From the NCBI RefSeq assembly GCF_044324875.1, contig NZ_CP172185.1: a stretch of 64,000 bases of DNA; one strand, 5' to 3'. The notes under the pieces were generated by a model. That model saw nothing but the letters and a program-made list of their open reading frames with translations. It was not told where the DNA came from and did no database searches. Shown piece by piece: positions 2,658 through 36,978 of this stretch. The stretch comes from Escherichia coli (lineage in GTDB: Bacteria > Pseudomonadota > Gammaproteobacteria > Enterobacterales > Enterobacteriaceae). The stretch's first letter is position 1; every line of letters begins with the position of its first letter. The position numbers and the translations under genes are program-made.

Positions 2658-2670
2658 ATGCGTGAAGTTT

Positions 2671-2700
2671 GCCTGATGCATAATGCTTATCAGGCCTGTG
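2671..2700. repeat. REP-like palindromic element (GCCTGATGC...CTTATCAGGCCT)
   Basis: The imperfect palindrome gcctgatgcataatgcttatcaggcctgtg resembles the enterobacterial REP consensus. A second partial REP-like motif (cacgccgtatccggtat) lies at about 2753-2769. Confidence 0.6.
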
Positions 2701-2798
2701 CGGCTCCTGCAATATATTGATTTTTCTAGATGTTGCTAGACGGGTAAAGTGTTCACGCCGTATCCGGTATAAACAAAGTGCACTTTGTCAGCAAACTT

Positions 2799-2824
2799 AA
2801 AAAGGCGCTGAAGCGCCTTTTTAA
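2799..2824. terminator. Bidirectional rho-independent terminator between nudE and mrcA
   Basis: GC stem aaaaGGCGC-tgaa-GCGCCtttt flanked by an A-run and a T-run, directly after the mrcA stop codon. Confidence 0.75.
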
Positions 2825-5401
2825 TCAGAACAATTCCTGTGCCTCGCCATTATCGATAATGGTCGTTCCCACCTCGTGCACCGCCTGTTGTGTCGGCTGC
2901 GTACCTTCGATGAAATACTCTTCGCGGCTGTTGCCACCATTAGCTAACTGCCCGGTGCTGCGATCGATATTCACCGTCACAATACCCGGCGGCGGCGTCA
3001 GCGGCTGCTCCGGCACACCTTCAAGAACGGCTTTCATATAAGCGTCCCATGCAGGCTGGGCACTCTTGGCACCGCCTTCGTAACCTGAGATCTGATCTTT
3101 AATCGCTCCGGAAGCCGTTGTATGACCGAGATTACGACGGTGATCATCAAAGCCAATCCAGACCGAGGTCACAACGCCCGGACCGTAACCCGAAAACCAC
3201 GCATCTTTCGAACTGTTAGTGGTACCGGTTTTCCCGCCGATATCGCGACGCTGCAAATCACGACCTGCACGCCAGCCGGTACCCTGCCAGCCTGGCTCAC
3301 CAAAGATATTGGTGTTCAAAGCACTCTTAATCAGGAATGCCAGCGGAGTGTTGATGACGTGCGGTGCGTACTCCTGCGCGCCAGTCTTCGCCACTAACGC
3401 CTGATTTGCCTGCTCCAGCTGCGGCATTGGCACAGAAACATTCTGCTGCTCGCGGGAGATAGCGACATCTTCAACATCGTTATTTTCCAGCACGTTCGAT
3501 TTCTGCGTATCACCGTAAATTACCGGAATATCGCATTCCGGGCAGGCTACTTTCGGTTTCGCTTCGAAAATCACGCCGCCCTGATCGTTTTCAATTTTGC
3601 TGATAAACCACGGGTCCACCAGGAAGCCGCCGTTCGCCATGACCGCGTAGCCGCGCGCCACCTGCATTGGGGTGAATGACGCTGAACCCAGCGCCAGCGA
3701 TTCGGTGTGGACAATGTTTTGCGCCGGGAAGCCGAAGCGTTGCAGATATTCTGCAGCGTAGTCGACGCCCATCGCCCGCATTGCGCGTACCATCACCACG
3801 TTTTTCGACTGGCCCAGTCCCTGACGTAAGCGAATTGGACCAGCATATTGTGGCGGCGAGTTTTTCGGCTGCCAGTCAGAACCGGCACCTGCGTCCCAGC
3901 GAGAAATTGGCACATCGTTCAACATACTTGCCAGCGTCAGACCTTTATCCATCGCCGCGGTGTAGAGGAACGGTTTGATGTTGGAACCCACCTGACGCAG
4001 TGCCTGGGTGGCGCGGTTAAACTTGCTCTGATTGAAATCAAAGCCACCGACCAGCGCCATAACGGCACCGTTTTGCGGATTGATCGACACCAGCGCCGAG
4101 TTCACTTCCGGCACTTGTGCCAGCCACCAAGCATCGCCAACCTGACGAACCCAGATTTGCTGACCCGTTTGCAGAACATCGGTCACTTTACGCGGCGTCG
4201 GTCCCTGCTGAGTATCCGAACGGTAAGGACGCGCCCAGCGAACGCCTTCCATACTCAATGCGACGGTCGACCCGTCCGCCAGCATCGCCGTCGCTTCCTG
4301 AGGATTGGCGCTGGTGACTGCGGCAGGTAGCAGAGGACCATAGGTCGGCAGCGCCTTCAACGTATCGGTAATCTTGTTGTTATCCCACGCCGACTCGCCC
4401 ACTTTCCACAGCACATTTGCCGGGCCGCGATAGCCGTGGCGCATGTCGTAGTCCAGCACGTTATTACGTACCGCCTGCTGTGCGGCCTGCTGCACTTTGC
4501 GGGTGATGGTGGTGTAAATGCGATAACCGTCTTCATAGGCACTTTCGCCATAACGGTTATACATCTCCTGGCGCACCATTTCGCTCAGGTACGGCGCAGA
4601 GAAAGCAATCTCCGGCGCGTGATAGTTAGCGTTAATCGCCTCAGTGCGTGTCTGATCGAACTGTTGCTGGGTGATATACCCTTCATCCAGCATCCGCGAC
4701 AGTACGACGTTACGCCGCGCGACGGCACGATCCATTGAGTAGAGCGGATTAAAGGTGGAAGGCGCTTTCGGCAGCCCGGCTATCACCGCCATTTCGTTCA
4801 GCGTCAGTTGGTCGACCGTTTTACCGAAATAGACTTGTGCCGCAGCACCGACACCATAGGCGCGGTAACCGAGGTAAATCTTGTTCAGATAAAGCTCGAG
4901 GATCTCGTCTTTCGTCAGCAATTGTTCAATGCGAATCGCGAGGAAGACTTCCTTAATCTTACGCATCAGCGTGCGTTCTGGACTGAGGAAGAAGTTTCTC
5001 GCCAGCTGCTGGGTAATGGTACTCGCCCCTTGTGACGCGTGGCCGGAGAACAGCGCCACACTTGCCGCACGGAAGATCCCCACCGGGTCAACGCCGTGAT
5101 GCTCGTAGAAGCGGCTGTCTTCCGTCGCGATAAAGGCTTTCACCATCTCCGGCGGGATTTGATCCAACGTAACCGGAATACGACGTTTCTCACCGTATTG
5201 AGCGATCAGCTCGCCATCGGCGCTGTAAATCTGCATCGGAATTTGCAGGCGAACATCTTTTAATGTCGCCACATCCGGCAGTTGTGGCTCGATGTAGCGG
5301 TATAGGCCATAAATCGAGCCTGCTCCCAGCAGAATGCAACAGACTGCAAGGATCAAAAAATACTTTACGAACTTCACTGGAAATTTCCCATTTAGTTTCA
5401 T
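2825..5401 (-). CDS. mrcA: Penicillin-binding protein 1A (bifunctional glycosyltransferase/transpeptidase)
   Basis: 858-aa ORF with GT51 motifs (EDSRFYEHHG, RKIKE) and transpeptidase motifs SxxK (SNIK), SKN and KTG (GKTGTT). The K-12 annotation uses the in-frame GTG at 5377 (850 aa, MKFVKYFLIL). Confidence 0.97.
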   Translation of the reverse strand: MKLNGKFPVKFVKYFLILAVCCILLGAGSIYGLYRYIEPQLPDVATLKDVRLQIPMQIYSADGELIAQYGEKRRIPVTLDQIPPEMVKAFIATEDSRFYEHHGVDPVGIFRAASVALFSGHASQGASTITQQLARNFFLSPERTLMRKIKEVFLAIRIEQLLTKDEILELYLNKIYLGYRAYGVGAAAQVYFGKTVDQLTLNEMAVIAGLPKAPSTFNPLYSMDRAVARRNVVLSRMLDEGYITQQQFDQTRTEAINANYHAPEIAFSAPYLSEMVRQEMYNRYGESAYEDGYRIYTTITRKVQQAAQQAVRNNVLDYDMRHGYRGPANVLWKVGESAWDNNKITDTLKALPTYGPLLPAAVTSANPQEATAMLADGSTVALSMEGVRWARPYRSDTQQGPTPRKVTDVLQTGQQIWVRQVGDAWWLAQVPEVNSALVSINPQNGAVMALVGGFDFNQSKFNRATQALRQVGSNIKPFLYTAAMDKGLTLASMLNDVPISRWDAGAGSDWQPKNSPPQYAGPIRLRQGLGQSKNVVMVRAMRAMGVDYAAEYLQRFGFPAQNIVHTESLALGSASFTPMQVARGYAVMANGGFLVDPWFISKIENDQGGVIFEAKPKVACPECDIPVIYGDTQKSNVLENNDVEDVAISREQQNVSVPMPQLEQANQALVAKTGAQEYAPHVINTPLAFLIKSALNTNIFGEPGWQGTGWRAGRDLQRRDIGGKTGTTNSSKDAWFSGYGPGVVTSVWIGFDDHRRNLGHTTASGAIKDQISGYEGGAKSAQPAWDAYMKAVLEGVPEQPLTPPPGIVTVNIDRSTGQLANGGNSREEYFIEGTQPTQQAVHEVGTTIIDNGEAQELF

Positions 5402-5496
5402 TTGGGCAGTTTATAAACAAACGCGCGGTAGTATAAAGGCAAGCCAGACGCATTGATATACCCGTCAGAGTGACGGGTGATAAGGAGATCATCACA

Positions 5497-6276
5497 ATGG
5501 CATTTAAGATCTGGCAAATTGGTTTGCATTTACAACAGCAAGAAGCGGTAGCGGTTGCTATCGTGCGGGGCACAAAAGAATGTTTTTTGCAACGCTGGTG
5601 GCGGTTGCCGCTGGAGAACGACATAATCAAAGATGGGCGGATTGTTGATGCGCAGCGGCTGGCTAACACGTTGTTACCGTGGAGTCGCGAACTGCCGCAG
5701 CGTCATCACATTATGTTGGCGTTTCCCGCCAGTCGCACATTACAGCGGTCATTTCCACGCCCGTCGATGTCCCTTGGTGAGCGGGAGCAAACGGCCTGGC
5801 TGTCCGGGACGATGGCCCGCGAGCTGGATATGGATCCGGACTCCCTGCGCTTCGATTACAGCGAAGACTCACTCAGTCCCGCCTATAACGTGACTACCGC
5901 GCAAAGCAAAGAGTTGGCAACGCTGCTTACTCTGGCAGAAAGGTTGCGTGTTCATGTTAGCGCGATCACCCCGGATGCCAGTGCATTACAGCGATTCCTG
6001 CCTTTTTTACCTTCTCATCAGCAATGTCTGGCCTGGCGTGATAACGAACAGTGGCTGTGGGCGACGCGCTATCGCTGGGGGCGCAAACTGGCGGTGGGGA
6101 TAACTAGCGCGAAGGAGCTGGCGGCAGCGTTATCCGTTGATCCCGAAAGCGTCGCGATATGTGGCGAAGGCGGATTTGATCCCTGGGAGGCCGTTTCTGT
6201 TCGTCAGCCGCCGCTACCGCCGCCAGGTGGAGACTTTGCCATCGCGCTGGGGCTGGCGCTTGGGAAGGCGTACTGA
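5497..6276 (+). CDS. hofM: PilM-like DNA utilisation/type IV pilus assembly protein HofM
   Basis: Starts MAFKIWQIGLHLQQQ, preceded by the SD sequence taaggag. The track ORF (5470) adds 9 upstream codons. This is the first gene of the hofMNOPQ set, divergent from mrcA. Confidence 0.9.
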   Translation: MAFKIWQIGLHLQQQEAVAVAIVRGTKECFLQRWWRLPLENDIIKDGRIVDAQRLANTLLPWSRELPQRHHIMLAFPASRTLQRSFPRPSMSLGEREQTAWLSGTMARELDMDPDSLRFDYSEDSLSPAYNVTTAQSKELATLLTLAERLRVHVSAITPDASALQRFLPFLPSHQQCLAWRDNEQWLWATRYRWGRKLAVGITSAKELAAALSVDPESVAICGEGGFDPWEAVSVRQPPLPPPGGDFAIALGLALGKAY

Positions 6277-6815
6277 TGAACCCGCCAATTAATTTTTTGC
6301 CCTGGCGACAGCAACGCCGGACCGCTTTTCTTCGTTTCTGGTTGCTGATGTTCGTTGCGCCTCTGCTGCTGGCTGTCGGGATAACGCTAATACTGCGTCT
6401 GACAAGCAACGCCGAAGCACGCGTAGACACCGTTTTGCTTCAGGCGGAACAACAACTCGCCCGCAGCTTACAGATAACGAAACCACGTTTGCTGGAACGC
6501 CAGCAGTTACGCGAACAGCGTTTGCAAAGGCAGCTCCAGCGACAATTTACCCGTGACTGGCAATCTGCGCTGGAAGCACTGGCGGCGCTTTTACCCGAAC
6601 ACGCCTGGCTGACAACGATAAGCTGGCAGCAGGGAACGCTGGAGATCAAGGGGCTGACAACAAGCATTACCGCGTTAAACGCACTAGAAACGTCACTCCG
6701 CCAGGATGCTTCTTTTCATCTCAATCAGCGGGGGGCCACGCAGCAGGATACGCAGGGACGCTGGCAATTTGAGTATCAGTTAACAAGAAAGGTTAGCGAT
6801 GGACATGCTCTTTGA
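6276..6815 (+). CDS. hofN: PilN-like protein HofN
   Basis: 179-aa ORF. Its ATG overlaps the hofM stop codon (TGATG). It has a single N-terminal TM segment and a Gln/Leu-rich coiled region, typical of PilN. Confidence 0.9.
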   Translation: MNPPINFLPWRQQRRTAFLRFWLLMFVAPLLLAVGITLILRLTSNAEARVDTVLLQAEQQLARSLQITKPRLLERQQLREQRLQRQLQRQFTRDWQSALEALAALLPEHAWLTTISWQQGTLEIKGLTTSITALNALETSLRQDASFHLNQRGATQQDTQGRWQFEYQLTRKVSDGHAL

Positions 6816-7239
6816 CTGGTGGTTCGTCGCATCACCCCGCCTCCGCCAGCTTTGCTGGGCAGTCTGGTTGCTGGTGTTAGTTACGCTCATTTTTCTGTCA
6901 TCGACACACCAGGAAGAGAGCGACGCATTAATTCGACTACGGGCGAGTCATCACCAGCAGTGGGCCGCACTGTATCGCCTGGTAGACACCACTCCCTTCA
7001 GCGAGGAAAAAACGCTGCCCTTTTCGCCACTGGATTTTCAGTTATCCGGCACGCAACTGGTTTACTGGCATCCATCCGCGCAGGGAGGTGAGTTGGCGTT
7101 GAAAACGCTGTGGGAAGCAGTGCCATCGGCATTTACACGGCTGGCAGAGCGCAACGTCAGCGTGAGCCGTTTTTCGTTAAGCGTGGAAGGTGATGACCTT
7201 TTGTTCACGCTACAACTGGAGACGCCGCATGAGGGTTAA
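6799..7239 (+). CDS. hofO: PilO-like protein HofO
   Basis: 146-aa ORF that overlaps the hofN end by 17 nt and has an N-terminal TM segment. Its position in the operon matches HofO. Confidence 0.85.
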   Translation: MDMLFDWWFVASPRLRQLCWAVWLLVLVTLIFLSSTHQEESDALIRLRASHHQQWAALYRLVDTTPFSEEKTLPFSPLDFQLSGTQLVYWHPSAQGGELALKTLWEAVPSAFTRLAERNVSVSRFSLSVEGDDLLFTLQLETPHEG

Positions 7240-7633
7240 ACGCTGGTTGTTGGCAGGTATTGCATTGTGCCTTTTAACCGGTATGCGTGACCCTTTTAAA
7301 CCGCCGGAAGATCTATGCCGGATTAGCGAACTTAGCCAGTGGCGCTATCAGGGGATAGTAGGGCGAGGCGAGCGCATCATCGGTGTAATAAAAGACGGGC
7401 AAAAGAAATGGCGACGGGTGCAGCAAAACGATGTGCTGGAAAACGGTTGGACAATTTTACAGCTGACGCCAGACGCACTAACGCTGGGAACCGGGACAAA
7501 CTGCGAACCGCCACACTGGTTGTGGCAACGGCAAGGAGATACAAATGAAGCAATGGATAGCCGCACTACTGTTGATGCTTATACCCGGCGTACAGGCGGC
7601 AAAGCCGCAAAAAGTGACGCTGATGGTGGATGA
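7229..7633 (+). CDS. hofP: PilP-like lipoprotein HofP
   Basis: Starts MRVKRWLLAGIALCLLTGM (signal-like). The track ORF begins 13 codons earlier. It overlaps the hofO end and the hofQ start. Confidence 0.8.
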   Translation: MRVKRWLLAGIALCLLTGMRDPFKPPEDLCRISELSQWRYQGIVGRGERIIGVIKDGQKKWRRVQQNDVLENGWTILQLTPDALTLGTGTNCEPPHWLWQRQGDTNEAMDSRTTVDAYTRRTGGKAAKSDADGG

Positions 7634-8783
7634 CGTTCCGGTAGCTCAGGTGTTGCAGGCGCTGGCTGAACAGGAGAAGTTGAACCTGGTCGTGTCGCCA
7701 GACGTCAGCGGTACGGTGTCGTTACATCTAACAGATGTTCCCTGGAAGCAGGCACTACAAACTGTAGTAAAAAGCGCCGGACTGATAACGCGGCAGGAAG
7801 GCAACATTCTCTCGGTGCATTCCGTTGCCTGGCAGAATGACAATATCGCCCGTCAGGAGGCGGAGCAGGCGCGGGCGCAGGCAAATCTGCCGCTGGAAAA
7901 TCGCAATATTACTCTGCAATACGCCGACGCCGGAGAGCTGGCGAAAGCGGGGGAGAAGCTACTGAGTGCCAAAGGGAGTATGACCGTCGATAAACGCACC
8001 AATCGCCTTTTGCTGCGAGATAACAAAGCGGCGTTAAGCGCGCTTGAACAGTGGGTAGCGCAAATGGATCTGCCGGTCGGGCAGGTTGAGCTGTCGGCGC
8101 ATATTGTCACCATTAATGAAAAAAGTTTGCGTGAGTTAGGCGTGAAATGGACGTTGGCTGATGCGCAACAAGCTGGTGGCGTTGGGCAAGTCACCACGCT
8201 TGGCAGCGACCTCTCCGTAGCGACGGCGACAACGCATGTCGGTTTTAACATTGGACGCATCAACGGACGTTTACTGGATCTTGAGCTTTCCGCGCTCGAA
8301 CAAAAACAGCAGCTGGATATTATCGCCAGTCCGCGTCTGCTTGCCTCACATCTTCAGCCTGCCAGCATTAAACAGGGGAGCGAAATTCCATATCAGGTTT
8401 CCAGCGGGGAAAGTGGCGCGACGTCGGTGGAATTTAAAGAGGCCGTCCTGGGGATGGAAGTTACGCCCACGGTGTTACAAAAAGGTCGCATCCGGCTGAA
8501 ATTACACATCAGCCAGAACGTTCCGGGGCAGGTGCTACAGCAGGCCGATGGCGAAGTGTTGGCGATTGATAAGCAGGAGATCGAAACGCAGGTCGAGGTC
8601 AAAAGCGGAGAAACGTTGGCGCTGGGCGGCATTTTTACCCGTAAAAATAAATCGGGTCAGGATAGCGTACCGTTGCTTGGCGACATTCCCTGGTTCGGGC
8701 AATTATTTCGTCATGACGGAAAAGAAGATGAACGACGCGAGTTAGTGGTGTTTATCACGCCACGACTGGTTTCCAGTGAGTAA
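7545..8783 (+). CDS. hofQ: Secretin HofQ (PilQ/ComE-like outer-membrane channel)
   Basis: 412-aa ORF with the SD sequence aaggag upstream and a signal peptide MKQWIAALLLMLIPGVQA. It carries the C-terminal secretin signature (VPLLGDIPWFGQLFR). Confidence 0.95.
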   Translation: MKQWIAALLLMLIPGVQAAKPQKVTLMVDDVPVAQVLQALAEQEKLNLVVSPDVSGTVSLHLTDVPWKQALQTVVKSAGLITRQEGNILSVHSVAWQNDNIARQEAEQARAQANLPLENRNITLQYADAGELAKAGEKLLSAKGSMTVDKRTNRLLLRDNKAALSALEQWVAQMDLPVGQVELSAHIVTINEKSLRELGVKWTLADAQQAGGVGQVTTLGSDLSVATATTHVGFNIGRINGRLLDLELSALEQKQQLDIIASPRLLASHLQPASIKQGSEIPYQVSSGESGATSVEFKEAVLGMEVTPTVLQKGRIRLKLHISQNVPGQVLQQADGEVLAIDKQEIETQVEVKSGETLALGGIFTRKNKSGQDSVPLLGDIPWFGQLFRHDGKEDERRELVVFITPRLVSSE

Positions 8784-9183
8784 ACAGCCGTAAAAGCGGT
8801 AATGTTTTTACGCTGAACATGTTTCATCTATTTGACGCGCGCAGGTATTTAGCATACAAGGAGTACCGATTTGAGAGTTGGTGCTCTTCGCTGCCTGCGT
8901 TCCATGATGATGATTTATCATTCAGGCGGCATTTTGCTGTCTTTTTTACGCTAATCTTACCCGGTGATTTATCGCCAGAGCGGTGGTAGCAAGGCAGCGC
9001 GCTTGCAGCGACCAGATATGCAGAGGGATGGGTGATTTATTCAGTTGCCAAACCCGCTGGAGTATTGAGATAATTTTCAGTCTGACTCTCGCAATATCTT
9101 ATGAGGTTTCAGTTCATGTCCTGCGGCGCTCTCTGAGCGAAGCGGGTTTATCATTAACGAATAGTCTTAGTAGTACCGAAAAA

Positions 9184-9705
9184 ATGGCAGAGAAACGCAA
9201 TATCTTTCTGGTTGGGCCTATGGGTGCCGGAAAAAGCACTATTGGGCGCCAGTTAGCTCAACAACTCAATATGGAATTTTACGATTCCGATCAAGAGATT
9301 GAGAAACGAACCGGAGCTGATGTGGGCTGGGTTTTCGATTTAGAAGGCGAAGAAGGCTTCCGCGATCGCGAAGAAAAGGTCATCAATGAGTTGACCGAGA
9401 AACAGGGTATTGTGCTGGCTACTGGCGGCGGCTCTGTGAAATCCCGCGAAACGCGTAACCGTCTTTCCGCACGTGGCGTTGTCGTTTATCTTGAAACGAC
9501 CATCGAAAAGCAACTTGCACGCACGCAGCGTGATAAAAAACGCCCGTTGCTGCACGTTGAAACACCGCCGCGTGAAGTTCTGGAAGCGTTGGCCAATGAA
9601 CGCAATCCGCTGTATGAAGAGATTGCCGACGTGACCATTCGTACTGATGATCAAAGCGCTAAAGTGGTCGCAAACCAGATTATTCACATGCTGGAAAGCA
9701 ACTAA
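9184..9705 (+). CDS. aroK: Shikimate kinase I
   Basis: Starts [19 protein letters not shown] (Walker A). The track ORF (8983) is an in-frame upstream extension that I do not consider coding. Confidence 0.96.
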
Positions 9706-9761
9706 TTCTGGCTTTATATACACTCGTCTGCGGGTACAGTAATTAAGGTGGATGTCGCGTT

Positions 9762-10850
9762 ATGGAGAGGATTGTCGTTACTCTCGGGGAACGTAGTTAC
9801 CCAATTACCATCGCATCTGGTTTGTTTAATGAACCAGCTTCATTCTTACCGCTGAAATCGGGCGAGCAGGTCATGTTGGTTACCAACGAAACCCTGGCTC
9901 CTCTGTATCTCGATAAGGTCCGCGGCGTACTTGAACAGGCGGGTGTTAACGTCGATAGCGTTATCCTCCCTGACGGCGAGCAGTATAAAAGCCTGGCTGT
10001 ACTCGATACCGTCTTTACGGCGTTGTTACAAAAGCCGCATGGTCGCGATACTACGCTGGTGGCGCTTGGCGGCGGCGTAGTGGGCGATCTGACCGGCTTT
10101 GCGGCGGCGAGTTATCAGCGCGGTGTACGTTTCATTCAAGTCCCGACGACGTTGCTGTCGCAGGTCGATTCCTCCGTTGGCGGCAAAACTGCGGTCAACC
10201 ATCCCCTCGGTAAAAACATGATTGGCGCGTTCTACCAGCCTGCTTCAGTGGTGGTGGATCTCGACTGTCTGAAAACGCTTCCCCCGCGTGAGTTAGCGTC
10301 GGGGCTGGCAGAAGTCATCAAATACGGCATTATTCTTGACGGTGCGTTTTTCAACTGGCTGGAAGAGAATCTGGATGCGTTGTTGCGTCTGGACGGTCCG
10401 GCAATGGCGTACTGTATTCGCCGTTGTTGTGAACTGAAGGCAGAAGTTGTCGCCGCCGACGAGCGCGAAACCGGGTTACGTGCTTTACTGAATCTGGGAC
10501 ATACCTTTGGTCATGCCATTGAAGCTGAAATGGGGTATGGCAATTGGTTACACGGTGAAGCGATCGCTGCGGGTATGGTGATGGCGGCGCGGACGTCGCA
10601 ACGTCTCGGGCAGTTTAGTTCTGCCGAAACGCAGCGTATTATAACCCTGCTCACGCGGGCTGGGTTACCGGTCAATGGGCCGCGCGAAATGTCTGCGCAG
10701 GCGTATTTACCGCACATGCTGCGTGACAAGAAAGTCCTTGCGGGAGAGATGCGCTTAATTCTTCCGTTGGCAATTGGTAAGAGTGAAGTTCGCAGCGGCG
10801 TTTCGCACGAGCTTGTTCTTAACGCCATTGCCGATTGTCAATCAGCGTAA
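9762..10850 (+). CDS. aroB: 3-dehydroquinate synthase
   Basis: 362-aa ORF with the full-length AroB sequence ([28 protein letters not shown]), immediately downstream of aroK. Confidence 0.97.
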
Positions 10851-10941
10851 CAACAAGAAAGGTCAGGCCGCTTATCAAGCGGTCTATTAGCTTCAGGTTA
10901 ATTGCAACGTGGTAAGCATTAACCTTTTAGTGGGGTGTTAA

Positions 10942-12228
10942 ATGGATGAATTCAAACCAGAAGACGAGCTGAAACCCGATCCCAGCGATCGTCGTACTGG
11001 TCGTTCTCGTCAATCTTCTGAACGTTCTGAGCGTACTGAACGTGGCGAACCGCAGATCAATTTTGATGATATTGAACTTGATGACACTGACGATCGCCGT
11101 CCGACTCGTGCGCAAAAAGAGCGCAATGAGGAACCGGAACTCGAAGAAGAAATTGACGAATCCGAAGATGAAACCGTGGATGAAGAGCGCGTAGAGCGTC
11201 GTCCGCGTAAGCGCAAAAAAGCAGCCAGTAAACCCGCTTCTCGTCAGTATATGATGATGGGCGTCGGCATTCTGGTTCTCCTGCTGTTGATTATCGGTAT
11301 CGGTTCTGCGCTAAAAGCCCCCTCGACCTCTTCCAGCGATCAAACCGCGTCTGGCGAGAAGAGTATTGATCTTGCTGGCAATGCGACCGATCAGGCGAAT
11401 GGCGTGCAGCCAGCACCGGGAACCACGTCTGCGGAAAATACTCAGCAGGATGTATCTCTGCCGCCGATCTCTTCTACGCCGACTCAAGGGCAAACCCCGG
11501 CGGCAACGGATGGTCAACAACGTGTTGAAGTGCAGGGTGACCTGAACAATGCGCTGACCCAGCCACAAAATCAGCAACAGTTGAACAATGTGGCGGTCAA
11601 TTCCACGTTGCCGACTGAACCCGCGACGGTCGCGCCTGTTCGCAATGGCAATGCATCGCGTGACACGGCGAAAACGCAAACCGCTGAACGTCCGGCCACC
11701 ACGCGTCCAGCTCGTCAGCAGGCGGTGATTGAACCGAAAAAACCGCAAGCAACCGTGAAAACGGAACCGAAGCCGGTAGCTCAGACGCCGAAGCGTATTG
11801 AACCAGCTGCTCCTGTGGCGAGCGCGAAGGCACCGGCTGCGACCTCTACGCCAGCACCAAAAGAGACCGCAACTACGGCTCCAGTACAGACGGCATCCCC
11901 GGCGCAAACCACGGCAACACCAGCCGCTGGAGGGAAGACCGCAGGTAATGTTGGTTCGTTGAAATCGGCACCGTCCAGCCATTACACTCTGCAGCTGAGC
12001 AGTTCCTCTAACTACGACAACCTGAACGGTTGGGCGAAGAAAGAGAATCTGAAAAACTACGTTGTCTATGAAACGACGCGTAATGGTCAGCCGTGGTATG
12101 TCCTGGTTTCTGGCGTGTACGCTTCGAAAGAAGAGGCGAAAAAAGCGGTATCTACATTGCCAGCAGATGTCCAGGCCAAAAACCCGTGGGCGAAACCGCT
12201 GCGTCAGGTACAGGCCGATCTGAAGTAA
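10942..12228 (+). CDS. damX: Cell-division protein DamX (SPOR domain)
   Basis: 428-aa ORF with an acidic N-terminus, one TM segment ([18 protein letters not shown]), a Pro/Thr/Gln-rich linker and a C-terminal SPOR-like domain ([21 protein letters not shown]). Confidence 0.95.
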
Positions 12229-12334
12229 TCAAGGTTATCTCCCGCAATGGTTTATCATCGCGGGAGTTGCCTGAAGCGCTGGATGCTGTCGGAGCTTTCT
12301 CCACAGCCGGAGAAGGTGTAATTAGTTAGTCAGC

Positions 12335-13171
12335 ATGAAGAAAAATCGCGCTTTTTTGAAGTGGGCAGGGGGCAAGTATCCCCTGCTTGATGATATTAAA
12401 CGGCATTTGCCCAAGGGCGAATGTCTGGTTGAGCCTTTTGTAGGTGCCGGGTCGGTGTTTCTCAACACCGACTTTTCTCGTTATATCCTTGCCGATATCA
12501 ATAGCGACCTGATCAGTCTCTATAACATTGTGAAGATGCGTACTGATGAGTACGTACAGGCCGCACGCGAGCTGTTTGTTCCCGAAACAAATTGCGCCGA
12601 GGTTTACTATCAGTTCCGCGAAGAGTTCAACAAAAGCCAGGATCCGTTCCGTCGGGCGGTACTGTTTTTATATTTGAACCGCTACGGTTACAACGGCCTG
12701 TGTCGTTACAATCTGCGCGGTGAGTTTAACGTGCCGTTTGGCCGCTACAAAAAACCCTATTTCCCGGAAGCAGAGTTGTATCACTTCGCTGAAAAAGCGC
12801 AGAATGCCTTTTTCTATTGTGAGTCTTACGCCGATAGCATGGCGCGCGCAGATGATGCATCCGTCGTCTATTGCGATCCGCCTTATGCGCCGCTGTCTGC
12901 GACTGCCAACTTTACGGCGTATCACACAAACAGTTTTACGCTTGAACAACAAGCGCATCTGGCGGAGATCGCCGAAGGTCTGGTTGATCGCCATATTCCA
13001 GTGCTGATCTCCAATCACGATACGATGTTAACGCGTGAGTGGTATCAGCGCGCAAAATTGCATGTCGTCAAAGTTCGACGCAGTATAAGCAGCAACGGCG
13101 GCACACGTAAAAAGGTGGACGAACTGCTGGCTTTGTACAAACCAGGAGTCGTTTCACCCGCGAAAAAATAA
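12335..13171 (+). CDS. dam: DNA adenine methyltransferase (GATC)
   Basis: 278-aa ORF with the AdoMet motif EPFVGAGSV and the catalytic motif DPPY ([11 protein letters not shown]). Confidence 0.98.
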
Positions 13172-13188
13172 TTCTCAAGGAGAAGCGG

Positions 13189-13866
13189 ATGAAACAGTAT
13201 TTGATTGCCCCCTCAATTCTGTCGGCTGATTTTGCCCGCCTGGGTGAAGATACCGCAAAAGCCCTGGCAGCTGGCGCTGATGTCGTGCATTTTGACGTCA
13301 TGGATAACCACTATGTTCCCAATCTGACGATTGGGCCAATGGTGCTGAAATCCTTGCGTAACTACGGCATTACCGCCCCTATCGACGTACACCTGATGGT
13401 GAAACCGGTCGATCGCATTGTGCCTGATTTCGCTGCCGCTGGTGCCAGCATCATTACCTTTCATCCAGAAGCCTCCGAGCATGTTGACCGCACGCTGCAA
13501 CTGATTAAAGAAAATGGCTGTAAAGCGGGTCTGGTATTTAACCCGGCGACACCTCTGAGCTATCTGGATTACGTGATGGACAAACTGGATGTGATCCTGC
13601 TGATGTCCGTCAACCCAGGTTTCGGCGGTCAGTCTTTCATTCCGCAAACACTGGATAAACTGCGCGAAGTACGTCGTCGTATCGACGAGTCTGGCTTTGA
13701 CATTCGTCTGGAAGTGGACGGTGGCGTGAAGGTGAACAACATTGGCGAAATCGCTGCGGCGGGCGCAGATATGTTCGTCGCCGGTTCGGCAATCTTCGAC
13801 CAGCCAGACTACAAAAAAGTCATTGATGAAATGCGCAGTGAACTGGCAAAGGTAAGTCATGAATAA
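13189..13866 (+). CDS. rpe: Ribulose-phosphate 3-epimerase
   Basis: 225-aa ORF with the typical Rpe sequence ([25 protein letters not shown]). Confidence 0.97.
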
Positions 13867-14617
13867 GTTTGAAGATATTCGCGGCGTCGCTTTTGATCTC
13901 GATGGTACGCTGGTGGACAGTGCTCCTGGCTTGGCTACCGCAGTAGATATGGCGCTGTATGCGCTGGAGTTGCCCGTCGCAGGTGAAGAACGCGTTATAA
14001 CCTGGATTGGTAACGGCGCAGATGTTCTGATGGAGCGCGCATTGACCTGGGCGCGTCAGGAACGTGCGACTCTGCGTAAAACAATGGGTAAACCGCCCGT
14101 TGATGACGACATTCCGGCAGAAGAACAAGTACGTATTCTGCGTAAACTATTCGATCGCTACTATGGCGAGGTTGCCGAAGAGGGGACGTTTTTGTTCCCG
14201 CACGTTGCCGATACGCTGGGCGCATTGCAGGCTAAAGGCCTGCCGTTGGGCCTGGTCACCAACAAACCGACGCCGTTCGTCGCGCCGCTGCTGGAAGCCT
14301 TAGATATCGCTAAATACTTCAGCGTGGTGATTGGTGGTGATGATGTGCAAAACAAAAAACCGCATCCGGACCCGCTGTTACTGGTGGCTGAGCGGATGGG
14401 AATTGCTCCACAACAGATGCTGTTTGTTGGCGACTCACGCAATGATATTCAGGCAGCAAAAGCGGCAGGTTGCCCATCAGTTGGCTTAACCTACGGATAT
14501 AACTACGGCGAGGCTATCGATCTCAGCCAGCCTGATGTAATTTATCAGTCTATAAATGACCTTCTGCCCGCATTAGGGCTTCCGCATAGCGAAAATCAGG
14601 AATCGAAAAATGACTAA
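13859..14617 (+). CDS. gph: Phosphoglycolate phosphatase (HAD family)
   Basis: 252-aa ORF with HAD motif I ([10 protein letters not shown]) and motif IV (VGDSRNDI). It overlaps the rpe stop codon by 8 nt. Confidence 0.96.
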
Positions 14618-15614
14618 GCCCATCGTTTTTAGTGGCGCACAGCCCTCAGGTGAATTGACCATTGGTAACTACATGGGTGCGCTGCGTCAGTGGGTAAACA
14701 TGCAGGATGACTACCATTGCATTTACTGTATCGTTGACCAACACGCGATCACCGTGCGCCAGGATGCACAGAAGCTGCGTAAAGCGACGCTGGATACGCT
14801 GGCCTTGTATCTGGCTTGTGGTATCGATCCTGAGAAAAGCACCATTTTTGTTCAGTCCCACGTACCAGAACATGCGCAGTTAGGCTGGGCACTGAACTGC
14901 TATACCTACTTCGGCGAACTGAGCCGCATGACGCAGTTTAAAGATAAATCTGCGCGTTATGCCGAGAACATCAATGCTGGTCTGTTTGACTATCCGGTGC
15001 TGATGGCAGCGGACATCCTGCTGTATCAAACTAATCTGGTACCGGTGGGTGAAGACCAGAAACAGCACCTGGAACTGAGCCGCGATATCGCCCAGCGTTT
15101 TAACGCGCTGTATGGCGAGATCTTTAAAGTGCCGGAGCCGTTTATTCCGAAATCTGGCGCGCGCGTAATGTCGCTGCTGGAGCCGACCAAAAAGATGTCC
15201 AAGTCTGACGATAACCGCAATAACGTTATCGGCCTGCTGGAAGATCCGAAATCGGTGGTGAAGAAAATCAAACGCGCGGTCACCGACTCCGACGAGCCGC
15301 CGGTAGTTCGCTACGATGTGCAGAACAAAGCGGGCGTTTCCAACCTGCTGGATATCCTTTCTGCGGTAACGGGCCAGAGCATCCCGGAACTGGAAAAACA
15401 GTTCGAAGGCAAGATGTATGGTCATCTGAAAGGCGAAGTGGCTGATGCCGTTTCCGGTATGCTGACTGAATTGCAGGAACGCTATCACCGTTTCCGCAAT
15501 GACGAAGCCTTCCTGCAACAGGTGATGAAAGATGGCGCGGAAAAAGCCAGCGCACACGCTTCCCGTACGCTAAAAGCGGTGTACGAAGCGATTGGTTTTG
15601 TGGCGAAGCCGTAA
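14610..15614 (+). CDS. trpS: Tryptophan--tRNA ligase
   Basis: 334-aa ORF, class I aaRS with a HIGH-like motif (TIGNYMGA) and an exact KMSKS motif. It overlaps the gph stop codon by 8 nt. Confidence 0.98.
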
Positions 15615-15629
15615 TTTAACATTAATGCC

Positions 15630-15656
15630 AAAAACCGGGGAAACCCGGTTTTTTTA
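15630..15656 (+). terminator. trpS rho-independent terminator
   Basis: Hairpin aaaaaCCGGGgaaaCCCGGttttttt located 16 nt after the trpS stop codon. Confidence 0.85.
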
Positions 15657-15774
15657 TCCTCTTTTTGTAATAATCCGAAAAAATGTGAAGCGCCTCGCCG
15701 TTTCCACATCTCGCAGTTGCCACTTATCTTCATTTTTATGAAGATATAAATATTCATTTTATTGAAAATTTACT

Positions 15775-16680
15775 ATGCGTCGAACGTTTATCAAAAAAGA
15801 AGGCGTCGTCATCACGACACTGGCCCGTTATTTGTTGGGTGAAAAGTGCGGTAATCGACTGAAAACCATAGATGAGCTGGCAACTGAATGCCGTTCATCC
15901 GTTGGCCTGACGCAGGCCGCGTTGAAAACGCTGGAATCAAGCGGAGCGATACGGATTGAACGCCGTGGGCGCAATGGCAGTTATCTGGTCGAGATGGATA
16001 ACAAAGCATTGCTGACTCATGTGGATATCAACAACGTGGTATGTGCGATGCCCTTGCCCTATACCCGTTTGTACGAAGGCCTGGCGAGCGGATTGAAAGC
16101 CCAGTTCGATGGCATTCCTTTTTACTATGCGCATATGCGCGGCGCGGATATTCGCGTGGAGTGTTTACTTAACGGCGTGTATGACATGGCGGTTGTTTCC
16201 CGACTGGCGGCGGAAAGTTATCTCACGCAAAAAGGCTTATGCCTCGCGCTGGAGTTGGGGCCGCACACCTACGTTGGCGAGCACCAGTTGATTTGCCGTA
16301 AAGGCGAGTCCGCAAACGTGAAGCGCGTGGGGCTGGATAACCGTTCGGCGGATCAGAAAATCATGACCGATGTCTTTTTTGGCGATAGTGATGTGGAACG
16401 TGTCGATCTCTCTTATCACGAGAGTTTACAACGCATTGTTAAAGGCGATGTTGATGCGGTGATCTGGAACGTGGTGGCGGAAAACGAACTGACCATGCTG
16501 GGATTAGAAGCGACGCCGCTCACAGACGATCCGCGATTTTTACAGGCCACCGAAGCCGTGATCCTGACGCGAGTCGATGATTACCCAATGCAACAATTGC
16601 TGCGTGCAGTTGTTGATAAACAGGCCCTGCTTGCCCATCAACAACGAGTGGTCAGTGGGGAACAGGAACCCAGTTATTAA
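15775..16680 (+). CDS. yhfZ: Putative GntR-like winged-helix regulator YhfZ
   Basis: 301-aa ORF. The N-terminus (LKTIDELATECRSSVGLTQAALKTLESSGAIRIERRGRNGSYL) looks like a GntR-type wHTH. It is the first gene of the yhfZ-yhfS cluster, as in K-12. Confidence 0.85.
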   Translation: MRRTFIKKEGVVITTLARYLLGEKCGNRLKTIDELATECRSSVGLTQAALKTLESSGAIRIERRGRNGSYLVEMDNKALLTHVDINNVVCAMPLPYTRLYEGLASGLKAQFDGIPFYYAHMRGADIRVECLLNGVYDMAVVSRLAAESYLTQKGLCLALELGPHTYVGEHQLICRKGESANVKRVGLDNRSADQKIMTDVFFGDSDVERVDLSYHESLQRIVKGDVDAVIWNVVAENELTMLGLEATPLTDDPRFLQATEAVILTRVDDYPMQQLLRAVVDKQALLAHQQRVVSGEQEPSY

Positions 16681-16801
16681 ACGAAAGGCATCTGAAATGG
16701 AAACCAGACTCAACCTGCTTTGCGATGCAGGCGTTATTGATAAGGACATCTGCAAAGGCATGATGCAGGTCGTCAACGTACTGGAAACTGAGTGTCATCT
16801 A

Positions 16802-16807
16802 CCGGTG
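16802..16807. repeat. Target-site duplication CCGGTG (left copy)
   Basis: An identical hexamer directly abuts both IS ends. An adjacent A makes a 7-bp reading (ACCGGTG) possible if the IS is taken to end in ...TTTGC. Confidence 0.8.
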
Positions 16808-16880
16808 TGCGTATTCCGCTCTATTCGATCACGGATTGGCATCGAAGTCCGATCAGCGATTCGCATCCATTCGATCAACC
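16808..16880. repeat. IS end distal to istA: terminal IR plus about 3 subterminal repeats
   Basis: TGCGTATTCCGCTCT then ATTCGATCACGGATTGGCAT, TCCGATCAGCGATTCGCAT and ATTCGATCAACC. The repeats are about 23 bp apart and each contains a GATC (16827, 16851, 16873). Confidence 0.8.
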
Positions 16881-16906
16881 GGGAACTTAACTTTTTCTAC
16901 CGCTTT

Positions 16907-17662
16907 TTAACGCGTTTTTTCGCTGCTTTCCACTACCGGGGGATTTTTCCTCAGTGACTCTCCCTGAAGGACCACTCGGTGTGAGTTATGTACCAGTCTG
17001 TCCAGGATGGCATCTGCTGTTGTTGGGTTCTCCATCAGACCATGCCATTTATCTACCGGGAACTGGCTTACCACTATCGTGCTGCTTTGTCCGTAACGAT
17101 CCTCTATGAGCTCCAGAAGGTCATTACACTGGGCGTTACTTAACTGTTCCAGCCCCAGATCGTCCAGGATTAGAACCTGTATTTTTTGCAACTGTTTCAG
17201 ATATTTCAGCCAGCTGCCATCAACACGTCCCTGAGCCAGTTGTTCCAGTAATCGCCCGGTTCTACAGTACCGGACGCTGTGTTTCTGTCGACATGCCTGT
17301 TCGCCCAGCGCATTGGCTATCCAGCTCTTGCCACATCCTGTCGGACCGGTTATCAGCAGGTTTTTCCTGTGGGTTATGTAGTGGCCGTTCAGCAGTTCTC
17401 TCATCTGTTCAGCCCGCAGACCTCTTGAGGCCGGATAGCGCAGCCCTTCCGGTGTTGCCTGGTATTTCAGGCCGGCATTTTTTCTCAACCGTGCCACACG
17501 GCTGTTTTCCCTGCTCAGAAGCTCGTCATCAACCAGCAGCGTCAGCCTTTCCTCGAACGACAGTTCGTCGTAGGTCTGAGGCGTTTCCCGCTGCCGTATC
17601 AGGCTCCCGGCCATCGCCGGGAGTTTCAGTTGGGTCAGTTTGTTTAACAGGTTATCACTCAT
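16907..17662 (-). CDS. istB: IstB-like AAA+ ATPase transposition helper
   Basis: 251 aa counted from MSDNLLNKLTQLKLPAMAG, with Walker A (GPTGCGKS) and Walker B (VLILDDLG). It starts 16 nt after the istA stop codon, with aagga upstream. The track ORF carries an 81-codon overlap extension. Confidence 0.92.
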   Translation of the reverse strand: MSDNLLNKLTQLKLPAMAGSLIRQRETPQTYDELSFEERLTLLVDDELLSRENSRVARLRKNAGLKYQATPEGLRYPASRGLRAEQMRELLNGHYITHRKNLLITGPTGCGKSWIANALGEQACRQKHSVRYCRTGRLLEQLAQGRVDGSWLKYLKQLQKIQVLILDDLGLEQLSNAQCNDLLELIEDRYGQSSTIVVSQFPVDKWHGLMENPTTADAILDRLVHNSHRVVLQGESLRKNPPVVESSEKTR

Positions 17663-17678
17663 ACTGTTGTTCCTTCTG

Positions 17679-19214
17679 TCAGTGGTAGTAGCCCGGACCA
17701 CGCAGGTTTTCATGCTCTGAAGCATATGCCGGATGTTGTTCGCCCTGGCGGGATAATGGAAGCTCCAGGTTCTCCCGATGGTGACGCAGCAGATTGTCGA
17801 TAAAGCGTCTGTCAGGGGCGTTATAGTGCAGGGCAACGTAACAGGCCTTTTCCAGCCGTTCCGGGCCGTATTTTTTCTGAAGTGCCAGCAGCCCCAGAAC
17901 TGCACGATAAGCCAGTTCCGGATGGGGTTTTGCCTTCAGCATGGATTCAACCACCCGGCCTGTGGACGGGCCCGTACGTTTTCCCTGCTCGATCAGGCGT
18001 TCCGGTGTCCATGTCCCGTGCTGCCGGTGGCGCTCTGGCATGTGAAGCGGATTGGTTGTGTGTTTATATTCATGTGTGCTGCGCGGATGTTGCGCCACAC
18101 ACTGCCCCTTGTGCCAGAGCTGTACCACCGACTGCCCCGCCTTCAGTGACAGACGCTGACCGACCAGTTCGTGTGGAACGGAGTACCAGTGACGGGCATA
18201 TTCAACGTGGTAGTCAGGGCCAACCTTCACAGCTTTGTATTCCGTGTATTCATAAGGTGCCAGAGGCAGCGGAGAGAGTGCTGGCGCATCCAGTATGCGG
18301 AAGCGTTCTGCACGGGTTTGATTGCCGTACCCCTTCATTGGCCGGTTATTCATGTCTGTCAGTAACTCCCTAAGGCGCGCATTCAGCGCCCTGAGCGTGT
18401 GGAAGGTTTCATTACGGATGCGGGCAAGAAGCCATCGTTCAACGATGAGGACGCCGTTTTCTGCTTTTGGTTTATCTTTAGGTTTGCGTGGTCGGGCCGG
18501 GATGATAACCGTGCCATAGTGCTCAGCCAGTGCCTGATAACTGTCGTTGATGACAGGCTCATATCGATCGGCCTTTTTCACTGCGCTTCTGAGGTTATCG
18601 GGGATGAGCAGCTTCGGTACGCCGCCCAGGAAGGTCAGGCAACGGCTGTGGGCATTTAACCATGACATCATGTCCTGACCTTCGCACGCTTCAACGTAGG
18701 TATAGTTGGACGCCCCCATTACGGCCACGAAGATTGCCACGCGGCGTATCTCACCGGTGTCCGGATTAATAACAGGAACCGTAGGACCACAGAAGTCGAT
18801 AAAAAGCTTTTCGCCGGCACGATGCTCCTGGCGCATGGAGAGACGTCGCGTTTTTTTCCACTCCCGGTAGCAACGGCAGAAGTGCGAGTATCCCATCGCT
18901 TTGTTACCCGCCTGTGCCTTGTATTCCATCCACAACAGTTGCCGCGTCACACCTGGTTTTCTCATTTCCGTATCGAAGTACAACATGTCAGGCATTACAA
19001 GCTCTGATGCAAAGGTGTCTTTGGGCGGAAAAATGAGTTTCTCCAGCGTGTCATGGGATATATCAGCAGGTAATGGCCATGACAGAGAAGAGGCTTTGAA
19101 GCGGGCAAGAACCTCAAAAACGGTTGAGGCGCTGATGTGTAACGTCAGTCCGATACAACGGTTAGTCAGCTTCTTGTCGAACTTGAGCTGAAGGATCTTA
19201 AAACAGGTTTCCAT
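17679..19214 (-). CDS. istA: IstA-like DDE transposase
   Basis: 511 aa counted from METCFKILQLKF, with the SD sequence aggag 5 nt upstream. It has an N-terminal HTH region and an rve-type integrase core (FIDFCGP..., NYTYVEA..., PARPRKPKDKPKAENGV). The track ORF adds 37 codons that run into the terminal repeats. Confidence 0.9.
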   Translation of the reverse strand: METCFKILQLKFDKKLTNRCIGLTLHISASTVFEVLARFKASSLSWPLPADISHDTLEKLIFPPKDTFASELVMPDMLYFDTEMRKPGVTRQLLWMEYKAQAGNKAMGYSHFCRCYREWKKTRRLSMRQEHRAGEKLFIDFCGPTVPVINPDTGEIRRVAIFVAVMGASNYTYVEACEGQDMMSWLNAHSRCLTFLGGVPKLLIPDNLRSAVKKADRYEPVINDSYQALAEHYGTVIIPARPRKPKDKPKAENGVLIVERWLLARIRNETFHTLRALNARLRELLTDMNNRPMKGYGNQTRAERFRILDAPALSPLPLAPYEYTEYKAVKVGPDYHVEYARHWYSVPHELVGQRLSLKAGQSVVQLWHKGQCVAQHPRSTHEYKHTTNPLHMPERHRQHGTWTPERLIEQGKRTGPSTGRVVESMLKAKPHPELAYRAVLGLLALQKKYGPERLEKACYVALHYNAPDRRFIDNLLRHHRENLELPLSRQGEQHPAYASEHENLRGPGYYH

Positions 19215-19317
19215 AGTGCTCCTGGATTTTCTCTTTCTGGACATTGACGTCTCCACTGGTTTAAACACGGCAATGGAGACTGTGGTGAAAAGAGTTAATT
19301 CCCGGAGTGACTGGCAG

Positions 19318-19446
19318 GATGCCAATCAATGATCGGAAGCATGCCAAATCGTGATCGATTGTGATGCCAAACTGTGATCGGAGATGGATGCCAAATCATG
19401 ATCGATTCGAATGCCAAACTGCGATCGATTCAGATGCCATTTTGCA
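19318..19446. repeat. IS end proximal to istA: six phased copies of ATGCCAAAYNNYGATCGRWT ending in the terminal IR
   Basis: ATGCC cores lie at 19319, 19341, 19364, 19388, 19411 and 19434, giving a 22-24 bp period. Five of the six copies carry a GATC (19331, 19353, 19376, 19400, 19423). Confidence 0.85.
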
Positions 19447-19452
19447 CCGGTG
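19447..19452. repeat. Target-site duplication CCGGTG (right copy)
   Basis: The hexamer is identical to 16802-16807 and lies immediately outside the IS terminal ...TTTTGCA. Confidence 0.8.
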
Positions 19453-19787
19453 CGCAGCGAGCAAGGAATGATGGCGATGACACATATGGCGAGCGCACTG
19501 ATGCGCAGTCGCCGTGGTGAAGAAATAGAGCCGCTGGACGCCGAATTGCTGGCAGAACTGGCGCAATCCAGCCACTGGCAAGCCGTTGTGCAATTGCATC
19601 AGGTATTGTTGAAGGAATTTGCACTGGAAGTTAACTCGTGTGAAGAAGGCTATTTGCTGGCCAACCTTTATGGATTATGGATGGCCGCGAACGAAGAGGC
19701 CTGAAGCTCACTACAAATCCACGTCGCATATCTTAAATATTCAAAAAAATGAATATTTGATTCAAGGAACAGAAACGAGGCAACAAG

Positions 19788-32900: not shown

Positions 32901-32918
32901 GTAAAAACCCCTTAGTAA

Positions 32919-33725: not shown

Positions 33726-33779
33726 TTGATTATCCTTTAAAAAATAAAAACAAAAAATAAAACAAAAAGTTTAAAAAAT

Positions 33780-33842: not shown

Positions 33843-33850
33843 TTAAAACA

Positions 33851-36717: not shown

Positions 36718-36775
36718 TTTTGCCTCGATTTCTTTTCTATTACCGCCTACCTTAACGATTCAGCAACCCCGCTTA

Positions 36776-36789: not shown

Positions 36790-36802
36790 ATTCACCTTTA
36801 TA

Positions 36803-36970: not shown

Positions 36971-36978
36971 ATGAGCAA

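Follow-up and report, generated by a model that had tools for sequence, protein, structure and literature searches.

A complete ISSso4-type IS21-family insertion sequence in yhfY of an Escherichia coli chromosome

What is the DNA that splits yhfY in this Escherichia coli chromosome, does it already have a name, and how recently did it arrive? We analyzed a stretch of 64,000 nucleotides (assembly GCF_044324875.1, contig NZ_CP172185.1), referred to below as the window, in which the reading frame of yhfY is interrupted after codon 37. A preliminary description, made from the letters alone, had proposed an intact istA/istB element of the IS21 family, bordered on both sides by perfect copies of a 6-bp target, and all the tests that we ran agree with it. 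The interruption is very probably a full-length and apparently functional copy of ISSso4 (IS21 family, long-IstA subgroup), which recently entered yhfY at codons 36-37 and duplicated CCGGTG.

Layout of the insertion in yhfY

Direct reading and script checks place an element of 2,639 bp with TG…CA ends between two perfect copies of CCGGTG (Table 1), and every coordinate given for the element in the preliminary description was correct. The left edge reads TGCGTATTCC, and the right edge reads …TTTTGCA. Taken alone, the window leaves an ambiguity of 1 bp at the boundaries, as ACCGGTG is also repeated. The boundaries and the 6-bp length of the duplication are nevertheless fixed, because 15 other copies of the element all start with TGCAAAAT and finish with AATACGCA. 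Both istA and istB are antisense to yhfY; their strand was absent from the preliminary description.

When positions 16808-19452 are deleted in silico, a continuous 120-aa YhfY open reading frame (ORF) is obtained, as had been predicted, with 3 aa and 8 nt that differ from YhfY as annotated in E. coli strain 7/2. The empty site implied by the duplication is common, being found uninterrupted in 5,076 of 5,426 complete E. coli genomes. Except at the insertion sequence (IS) and at the frl operon, a reference chromosome is collinear with the window, in keeping with the earlier remark that the IS is the only clearly mobile DNA in the window.

Assemblers often mis-join IS copies, and the assembly of another strain contains a stand-alone 2,636-bp contig of this IS, which might suggest that a repeat contig had been misplaced inside yhfY. 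Such an artefact is extremely improbable, because exact IS termini together with a perfect 6-bp duplication of a sequence that is single in the empty site are the signature of real transposition, one that a mis-join would not create.

Table 1. Coordinates of the ISSso4-type element and of the two parts of yhfY in the window
Feature	Position	Strand	Description
yhfY 5' part	16697-16807	+	Codons 1-37, …ECHLPV; last 6 nt are the left duplication copy
Target-site duplication, left copy	16802-16807		CCGGTG; yhfY codons 36-37; single copy in the empty site of strain 7/2
Complete ISSso4-type IS21-family insertion sequence	16808-19446	minus (genes)	2,639 bp
istB-proximal (right) terminal inverted repeat	16808-16866	minus	Two CGATCN5TTSGCAT motifs: 16826-16842, 16850-16866
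istB	16907-17662	minus	251-aa AAA+ helper ATPase; stop included
istA	17679-19214	minus	511-aa DDE transposase; stop included; ATG preceded by AGGAG
IstA parts (residues)			D140, D206, E252; rve core 131-245; beta-barrel 316-387; C-terminal tail 388-511
istA-proximal (left) terminal inverted repeat	19319-19446	minus	Five CGATCN5TTSGCAT motifs (19319-35, 19341-57, 19364-80, 19388-404, 19411-27; ~23-nt spacing) plus terminal TGCAAAATGGCAT
Target-site duplication, right copy	19447-19452		CCGGTG; direct reading and script
yhfY 3' part	19453-19704	+	Codons 38-120 plus stop (83 codons; stop 19702-19704)

Proteins and ends of an IS21-family element

The homology of both proteins to the IS21 family, proposed earlier from their motifs and order, was borne out by the curated IS21 models of NCBIfam, to which we applied the models' own cut-offs. 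IstA scored 284.7 bits against NF033546 (cut-off, 160), and IstB scored 257.8 bits against NF038214 (cut-off, 200). IstB also scored 205.7 bits against PF01695. IstA reached 72.1 bits against Mu-transpos_C_2, above the cut-off of 27, and 32.1 bits against the rve model, just below the cut-off of 32.6. The long istA is followed on the same strand by the shorter istB, with 16 nt between the istA stop and the istB ATG. In IstB, the Walker A sequence GPTGCGKS occupies residues 106-113 and LILDDLG residues 164-170 (Walker B LILDD, 164-168).

IS5376 and IS21 are prototypes whose structure and biochemistry have been characterized. IstA residues D140, D206, and E252 align with D124, D187, and E233 of IS5376 IstA (PDB 8b4h/8q4d), which have been validated experimentally, and IstB aligns over residues 10-241 with IS5376 IstB (8q3w). 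The element resembles both prototypes in the two-gene order, the aligned DDE triad, the beta-barrel, the AAA+ fold of IstB with Walker A and B, the TG…CA ends, the iterated subterminal repeats, and the short target duplication (PMC10122671, PMC11208146). The relation to IS5376 is distant, however, with phmmer E values of ~1e-13 for IstA and ~1e-24 for IstB. IS5376 IstA has ~400 aa, whereas IstA of the window has 511 aa with a C-terminal tail of ~125 aa, and the istA end of IS5376 carries two repeats (L1/L2) where that of the window element carries five. The target duplication of IS5376 is 5 bp (PMC10122671), compared with a mode of 6 bp (range, 4-7) for ISSso4-type copies.

The preliminary description regarded the long IstA as unusual. 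It is not, since the same tail is common to the transposases of six named IS21-family elements, IS408, ISEc12, ISPsy14, ISAs29, ISFK1, and ISAzs2, and the long IstA is therefore the mark of a known subgroup; the idea of a new subgroup was rejected on the same evidence. The tails of these six are 29-47% identical to that of the window over 97-100% of 124 residues. They are separate elements, well below 60% identity in the tail region, and they occur in other hosts too (Burkholderia, Pseudomonas, Aeromonas, and rhizobia).

The ends of the element have TG…CA termini and imperfect inverted repeats with multiple iterated subterminal repeats, as is characteristic of the IS21 family. The motif CGATCN5TTSGCAT occurs seven times in the window, always inside the two IS ends, where 0.05 occurrences would be expected by chance. 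The two ends had been described as related to each other, and this stands through the iterated motif and when gaps are allowed (26/37 columns match over the outer ~36 nt and 46/64 columns over 60 nt), but it does not stand for an ungapped comparison, in which just 24/60 positions match. By analogy with IS5376, the two motifs at the istB end are presumed to be the IstA-binding sites R1 and R2 (PMC10122671).

Ten codons before the annotated start of istA (ATG at 19214) there is another in-frame ATG, at 19244, which has a separate Shine-Dalgarno sequence, GGAG, and both ATG and GGAG are also conserved in the Shigella sonnei copy of ISSso4. This ATG and the five-versus-two difference in repeats could reflect an undescribed regulatory or isoform mechanism of long-IstA elements, to which we give only a small chance. 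It could take the form of autorepression via the extra sites or of two IstA isoforms that resemble the transposase and cointegrase of IS21. If true, such a mechanism might be part of the reason why 100%-identical copies are now spreading.

Identity of the element and its other copies

ISSso4 is a member of the IS21 family whose name was first given from S. sonnei. The suggestion that the element in yhfY might be unnamed did not survive comparison with annotated and published ISSso4. It differs by 7 nt (99.7% identity) from the copy on the E. coli plasmid pCT, which has been called ISSso4 (PMC6361801). Against an S. sonnei plasmid copy, in which PGAP names both genes ISSso4, 98 of the 2,639 positions differ (96.3% identity), and the proteins are 97.7% (IstA, 12 aa changes) and 97.2% (IstB, 7 aa changes) identical. 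The length is similar (2,639 bp here versus 2,638 bp), the 14-nt termini TGCAAAAT…AATACGCA are identical, and the layout of istA (511 aa), 16 nt, and istB (251 aa) is shared with the same ORF coordinates. The window copy is thus the E. coli/plasmid-borne variant, separated by 98 substitutions from the S. sonnei copy.

Could this variant be a distinct IS, a sister element with a name of its own rather than an isoform of ISSso4? The 98 differences are from a copy whose IstA is named ISSso4 by PGAP, whereas for the E. coli-type variant PGAP calls IstA only by the generic "IS21 family transposase" and assigns IstB to the ISSso4 family. ISfinder treats elements as isoforms at >95% nucleotide and/or >98% amino acid identity. 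By this rule the two protein values appear borderline, slightly below the amino acid threshold. However, nucleotide identity exceeds 95% over the full length against both the pCT and the S. sonnei copies, which served as proxies for the ISfinder reference. Length, termini, and gene layout are all those of ISSso4, and the pCT copy, only 7 nt away, carries that name in the literature, as does the family label that PGAP gives IstB. We therefore consider a distinct IS rather unlikely. The generic PGAP name of IstA and the protein identities to S. sonnei make the status of the variant as an isoform probable rather than certain. The element is one already catalogued; its insertion here is of an ordinary type, specific to the strain, and no novel sort of element is involved.

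The variant is found on chromosomes of E. coli, Salmonella, and Klebsiella and on conjugative plasmids, and many of these copies are 0-7 nt from the element. Copies in E. coli 3R, GPEC1040, and ESDR8 show 0 differences, and ten further copies show 1-4. In some genomes as many as 23 places match, counting partial as well as full matches. The 100%-identical copies are spread over poultry-associated E. coli and conjugative plasmids from several continents.

We compared 15 independent copies at different sites, which all have the same termini. Target duplications of 4-7 bp, with a mode of 6 bp, flank 14 of the 15, and one copy has none. In the IS21 family, target duplications are 4-8 bp long. The stand-alone 2,636-bp record mentioned above belongs to ESDR8, where it is listed as a "plasmid." We considered it as a circular form of the IS and rejected this, as the contig is linear; it equals the element without the final 3 nt and is therefore an assembly by-product.

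Age, activity, and consequences of the insertion

No complete E. coli genome exceeds 99.3% identity to the chromosomal backbone (best matches, 99.1-99.3%), whereas the IS has copies elsewhere that match it at 100%, so that a recent arrival is indicated. Had the IS diverged together with the backbone, its 2,639 bp should contain ~18 differences, and 0 are seen against the closest copies. With the perfect duplication, this comparison argues for a recent insertion, as had been suggested at the outset. None of the 5,426 complete E. coli genomes has a filled yhfY site, and searches of species-representative genomes and metagenome contigs did not find the yhfY::IS junction either. Three junction ORFs that a gene caller might make gave no exact match on look-up.

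The same genome collection also bears on an older origin, in which the insertion kept an intact sequence and became fixed in a lineage that has not been sampled. In favor of it, no close relative of the source chromosome is present among the 5,426 complete genomes. An old insertion is still unlikely. The element matches copies in unrelated strains and plasmids at every nucleotide, whereas the backbone on its flanks is at least 0.7% different; its duplication is perfect, and its junction is absent from every collection searched.

On the reading of a recent ISSso4 insertion, the variant of E. coli, Salmonella, and Klebsiella transposed into yhfY codons 36-37 and doubled the 6-bp target CCGGTG. 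YhfY is split after residue 37. By analogy with IS21 and IS5376, for which mechanism and structures have been reported (PMC10122671, PMC11208146), IstA would bind the iterated subterminal repeats, synapse both ends as a tetramer, and expose the 3'-OH at the terminal CA. The AAA+ protein IstB, which depends on ATP, would oligomerize on the target DNA and bend it, and would recruit and activate IstA. Staggered strand transfer followed by repair would then produce the short direct repeat.

From its intactness and from the identical copies elsewhere, it is reasonable to infer that the copy is probably still active. A crude scan of the element found no consensus sigma-70 promoter for istA on the minus strand, and a wider scan for promoters and terminators in the element stayed within the level of shuffled sequence, so we make no claim on promoters of istA or on outward ones. 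In the IS21 literature, a single IS21 copy is weakly expressed. A copy that can no longer transpose although its ORFs are intact, because of a defect in regulation or at an end, for instance, would fit the lack of a detected promoter-like site for istA. Such a dead copy is very improbable, as the identical sequence occurs at many different sites and in multicopy genomes, every catalytic and nucleotide-binding residue is present, and both ends are complete and the same as in the 15 other copies.

In the strain carrying the insertion, expression of the downstream same-strand genes yhfX-yhfW-php-yhfU-yhfT-yhfS is probably lowered, and part of the uncharacterized yhfZ-yhfS cluster is probably silenced. 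The disrupted gene, yhfY, is itself a poorly understood E. coli gene. The insertion is useful as a strain-specific marker, since none of the 5,426 complete E. coli genomes has it. For annotation, the element should be recorded as ISSso4 (IS21 family) and yhfY as disrupted; the insertion has little importance beyond that and raises no new biological question. That unrelated strains and conjugative plasmids carry identical copies indicates that this ISSso4 variant is currently mobile in Enterobacteriaceae, and its mobility is relevant to tracking IS-mediated rearrangements on resistance plasmids.

Position and boundaries of the element in yhfY

An IS21-family insertion sequence of 2,639 bp lies between two direct copies of CCGGTG in yhfY. 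Direct reading of positions 16600 to 19800, together with a script check, confirmed all coordinates of a preliminary description made from the sequence alone. The element starts with TGCGTATTCC and ends with TTTTGCA, and none of its 20-mers was found elsewhere in the window. As that description had predicted, removal of 16808-19452 leaves a single uninterrupted open reading frame (ORF) of 120 aa, which, compared with yhfY as annotated in E. coli strain 7/2 (our reference chromosome with an intact gene), has 3 residue and 8 nucleotide differences.

Features of the insertion in yhfY (window coordinates)
Feature	Position	Strand	Description
Insertion sequence	16808-19446		istB-proximal end at 16808, istA-proximal end at 19446
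Target duplication	16802-16807 and 19447-19452		CCGGTG
yhfY 5' part	start 16697	plus	37 codons, to ...ECHLPV
yhfY 3' part	from 19453; stop 19702-19704	plus	83 codons
istA	17679-19214	minus	511 aa, counted from the ATG preceded by AGGAG
istB	16907-17662	minus	251 aa
End motifs, istA end	19319-19427		five copies, ~23-nt spacing
End motifs, istB end	16826-16866		two copies

Since ACCGGTG is likewise repeated, the boundary is uncertain by 1 bp from the window alone. The boundaries were compared with those of the copy on plasmid pCT and of 14 other copies, which came from E. coli chromosomes or from plasmids of E. coli, Salmonella, Klebsiella, and Shigella. Each of these copies starts with TGCAAAAT, ends with AATACGCA, and has a length of 2,639 bp, or 2,638 bp in S. 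sonnei. They occupy differing sites, with direct repeats of 4 to 7 bp (mode, 6) and none in one copy. These common termini and direct repeats set the ends of the element as TG...CA and the duplication in yhfY as 6 bp. When aligned to strain 7/2, the flanks abut with a 7-nt overlap, composed of the 6-bp duplication and one further base that agrees by chance, so the empty site has a single CCGGTG, and the perfect 6-bp target duplication read from the sequence was correct.

The two ends can be aligned only with gaps (26/37 columns over the outer ~36 nt and 46/64 over 60 nt). Their kinship is due mainly to the iterated motif CGATCN5TTSGCAT; the 64-kb window has seven copies of it, all within the element ends, compared with a chance expectation of 0.05. 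In descriptions of prototypical IS21-family elements, each end has two motifs; the iterated end repeats are family-typical, although the five at the istA end exceed the prototype.

Identity and distribution of the element

The element had been considered possibly unnamed, but this did not hold. PGAP labels its IstB "IS21-like element ISSso4 family," and there are only 7 differences from the pCT copy, which was called ISSso4 (PMC6361801), a name used as the ISfinder name for S. sonnei (PMC7373316; also a 2026 preprint). The S. sonnei plasmid copy, both proteins of which PGAP calls ISSso4, has 98 differences (96.3% identity; IstA, 97.7%; IstB, 97.2%). No differences were found from the copies of strains 3R, GPEC1040, and ESDR8, and one to four were found from ten others. 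The PGAP labels and the literature naming of near-identical copies thus make this a named, catalogued insertion sequence; the E. coli-type variant is probably an isoform of ISSso4, although ISfinder might give it a name of its own.

A match of some kind is present in 1,778 of the 5,426 complete E. coli genomes, and at least 80% of the element is covered at one place in 225. Identity reaches 100% for many E. coli copies, and the matching places within one genome, counting full and partial ones, number as many as 23. At least 80% of the element was also found in 232 plasmid records; the majority of matching plasmids are conjugative, with hosts including Escherichia, Salmonella, Shigella, Klebsiella, and Enterobacter. 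Conjugative plasmids and E. coli of chicken or poultry (China, the United States, and Pakistan) are the source of many listed copies with 100% identity, which suggests that this exact variant has spread recently.

One identical copy, on plasmid pD2-tet(X4) (NZ_JBXSPU010000002.1, 21384-24022), has no target duplication (flanks ATTAAG and ACTTTC) and adjoins a frameshifted traG. The plasmid has three matching places, and IS-mediated deletion or recombination between copies is suggested. NZ_JBXSPU010000008.1, deposited as "plasmid unnamed8," is a 2,636-bp linear sequence holding only the IS less its last 3 nt; we rejected it as a replicon, because such content marks a collapsed repeat contig.

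Age and surroundings of the insertion

The empty yhfY site is unbroken in 5,076 of the 5,426 complete E. coli genomes, in line with the predicted empty site, and none of the 5,426 contains the filled site. The yhfY::IS junction was not found in species-representative genomes or metagenome contigs, and exact look-ups of the junction ORFs gave no match. The best backbone identity to any of the complete genomes is 99.3% (1-16807) and 99.1% (19453-31500); the window's lineage, within the E. coli/Shigella group, has no close representation among them. A divergence of 0.7% would amount to ~18 differences in 2,639 bp, and the IS shows none relative to copies carried by unrelated strains. Set against a backbone of at most 99.3% identity, the identical IS and the perfect duplication indicate that the element probably arrived horizontally and transposed recently, in agreement with the recent insertion first proposed; the insertion may be private to one isolate or common to a small lineage.

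Collinearity with strain 7/2 (NZ_CP023820.1) extends over the window from igaA to rplW and is broken at only two places, by the IS and by a segment of 5.2 kb at 25832-31029. This supports the view that, within the window, no DNA other than the IS is mobile. Strain 7/2 lacks the 5.2-kb segment, which is situated between yhfS and yhfL and matches the operon annotated as frl (fructoselysine) in other E. coli genomes; its presence or absence is apparently an ordinary polymorphism. Identity to strain 7/2 is 99.24% (1-16807), 96.6% (19446-25831, yhfX-yhfS), 98.4% (31030-44779), and 99.06% (44102-64000). The markedly more diverged yhf cluster downstream of the IS suggests a recombination mosaic.

The genes yhfZ, yhfY, yhfX, yhfW, php, yhfU, yhfT, and yhfS share the plus strand and are separated by short gaps. 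YhfZ is a helix-turn-helix (HTH) regulator and YhfX a PLP enzyme, while the sole match of YhfY is PRD-like and sub-threshold. The insertion cuts YhfY after residue 37 and adds 49 IS-encoded codons in fusion, and a polar drop of the genes downstream of yhfY is likely.

IstA, IstB, and the predicted transposition pathway

Both genes are antisense to yhfY, with sixteen nt from the istA stop to the istB ATG. The assignment to the IS21 family was borne out by NCBIfam models, with IstA scoring 284.7 bits against NF033546 "IS21 family transposase" (cutoff, 160) and IstB 257.8 bits against NF038214 "IS21-like element helper ATPase IstB" (cutoff, 200). IstA also matches Mu-transpos_C_2 (72.1 bits; cutoff, 27) and, slightly below the cutoff of 32.6, rve (32.1 bits); IstB matches PF01695 (205.7 bits). 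IstA residues 75 to 373 and IstB residues 10 to 241 align with the solved structures of IS5376 IstA (8b4h and 8q4d) and IstB (8q3w). IstA D140, D206, and E252 share alignment columns with IS5376 D124, D187, and E233, which mutagenesis showed to be needed for integration (PMC10122671). The IstB Walker A (GPTGCGKS) and Walker B (LILDD) motifs are at residues 106 to 113 and 164 to 168.

The 124 IstA residues past the β-barrel have no Pfam assignment. The length of IstA had been read as a possible sign of an unusual subgroup, but tblastn matched this tail at 29 to 47% identity, over nearly its full length, to IstA of IS408, ISEc12, ISPsy14, ISAs29, ISFK1, and ISAzs2 and placed it in many unnamed IS21-family elements of Proteobacteria and beyond. 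Long-IstA elements are thus a populous and known subgroup.

The IstA N-terminal HTH (residues 6 to 70; 19005-19199) matches the IS66 accessory protein TnpA model at 54.7 bits (cutoff, 150), presumably reflecting common HTH ancestry and nothing further. Ten codons before the annotated istA start, at 19242-19244 on the minus strand, there is an in-frame ATG preceded by GGAG; it would yield a 521-aa IstA with the basic N-terminal extension MSRKRKSRST. The S. sonnei copy keeps both ATG and GGAG, and through one substitution its third residue is K. The two possible starts may be reminiscent of the two IstA isoforms (transposase and cointegrase) of IS21.

By homology to the IstA/IstB systems described previously (PMC10122671 and PMC11208146), IstA would bind the subterminal repeats cooperatively, and an intertwined IstA tetramer would synapse both ends, with the 3'-OH of the terminal CA positioned in the DDE site. 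In the presence of ATP, IstB would bend target DNA as pentamers of dimers; a pair of these decamers would kink the target into an S shape, in which form it engages the β-barrels of IstA. This contact would stimulate ATP hydrolysis and trigger strand transfer over a short stagger. All sequence features required by this scheme are present and intact in the window copy, which is probably still mobile. The insertion is real and was accurately described; it is an ordinary, previously named insertion sequence at a new, unremarkable site.
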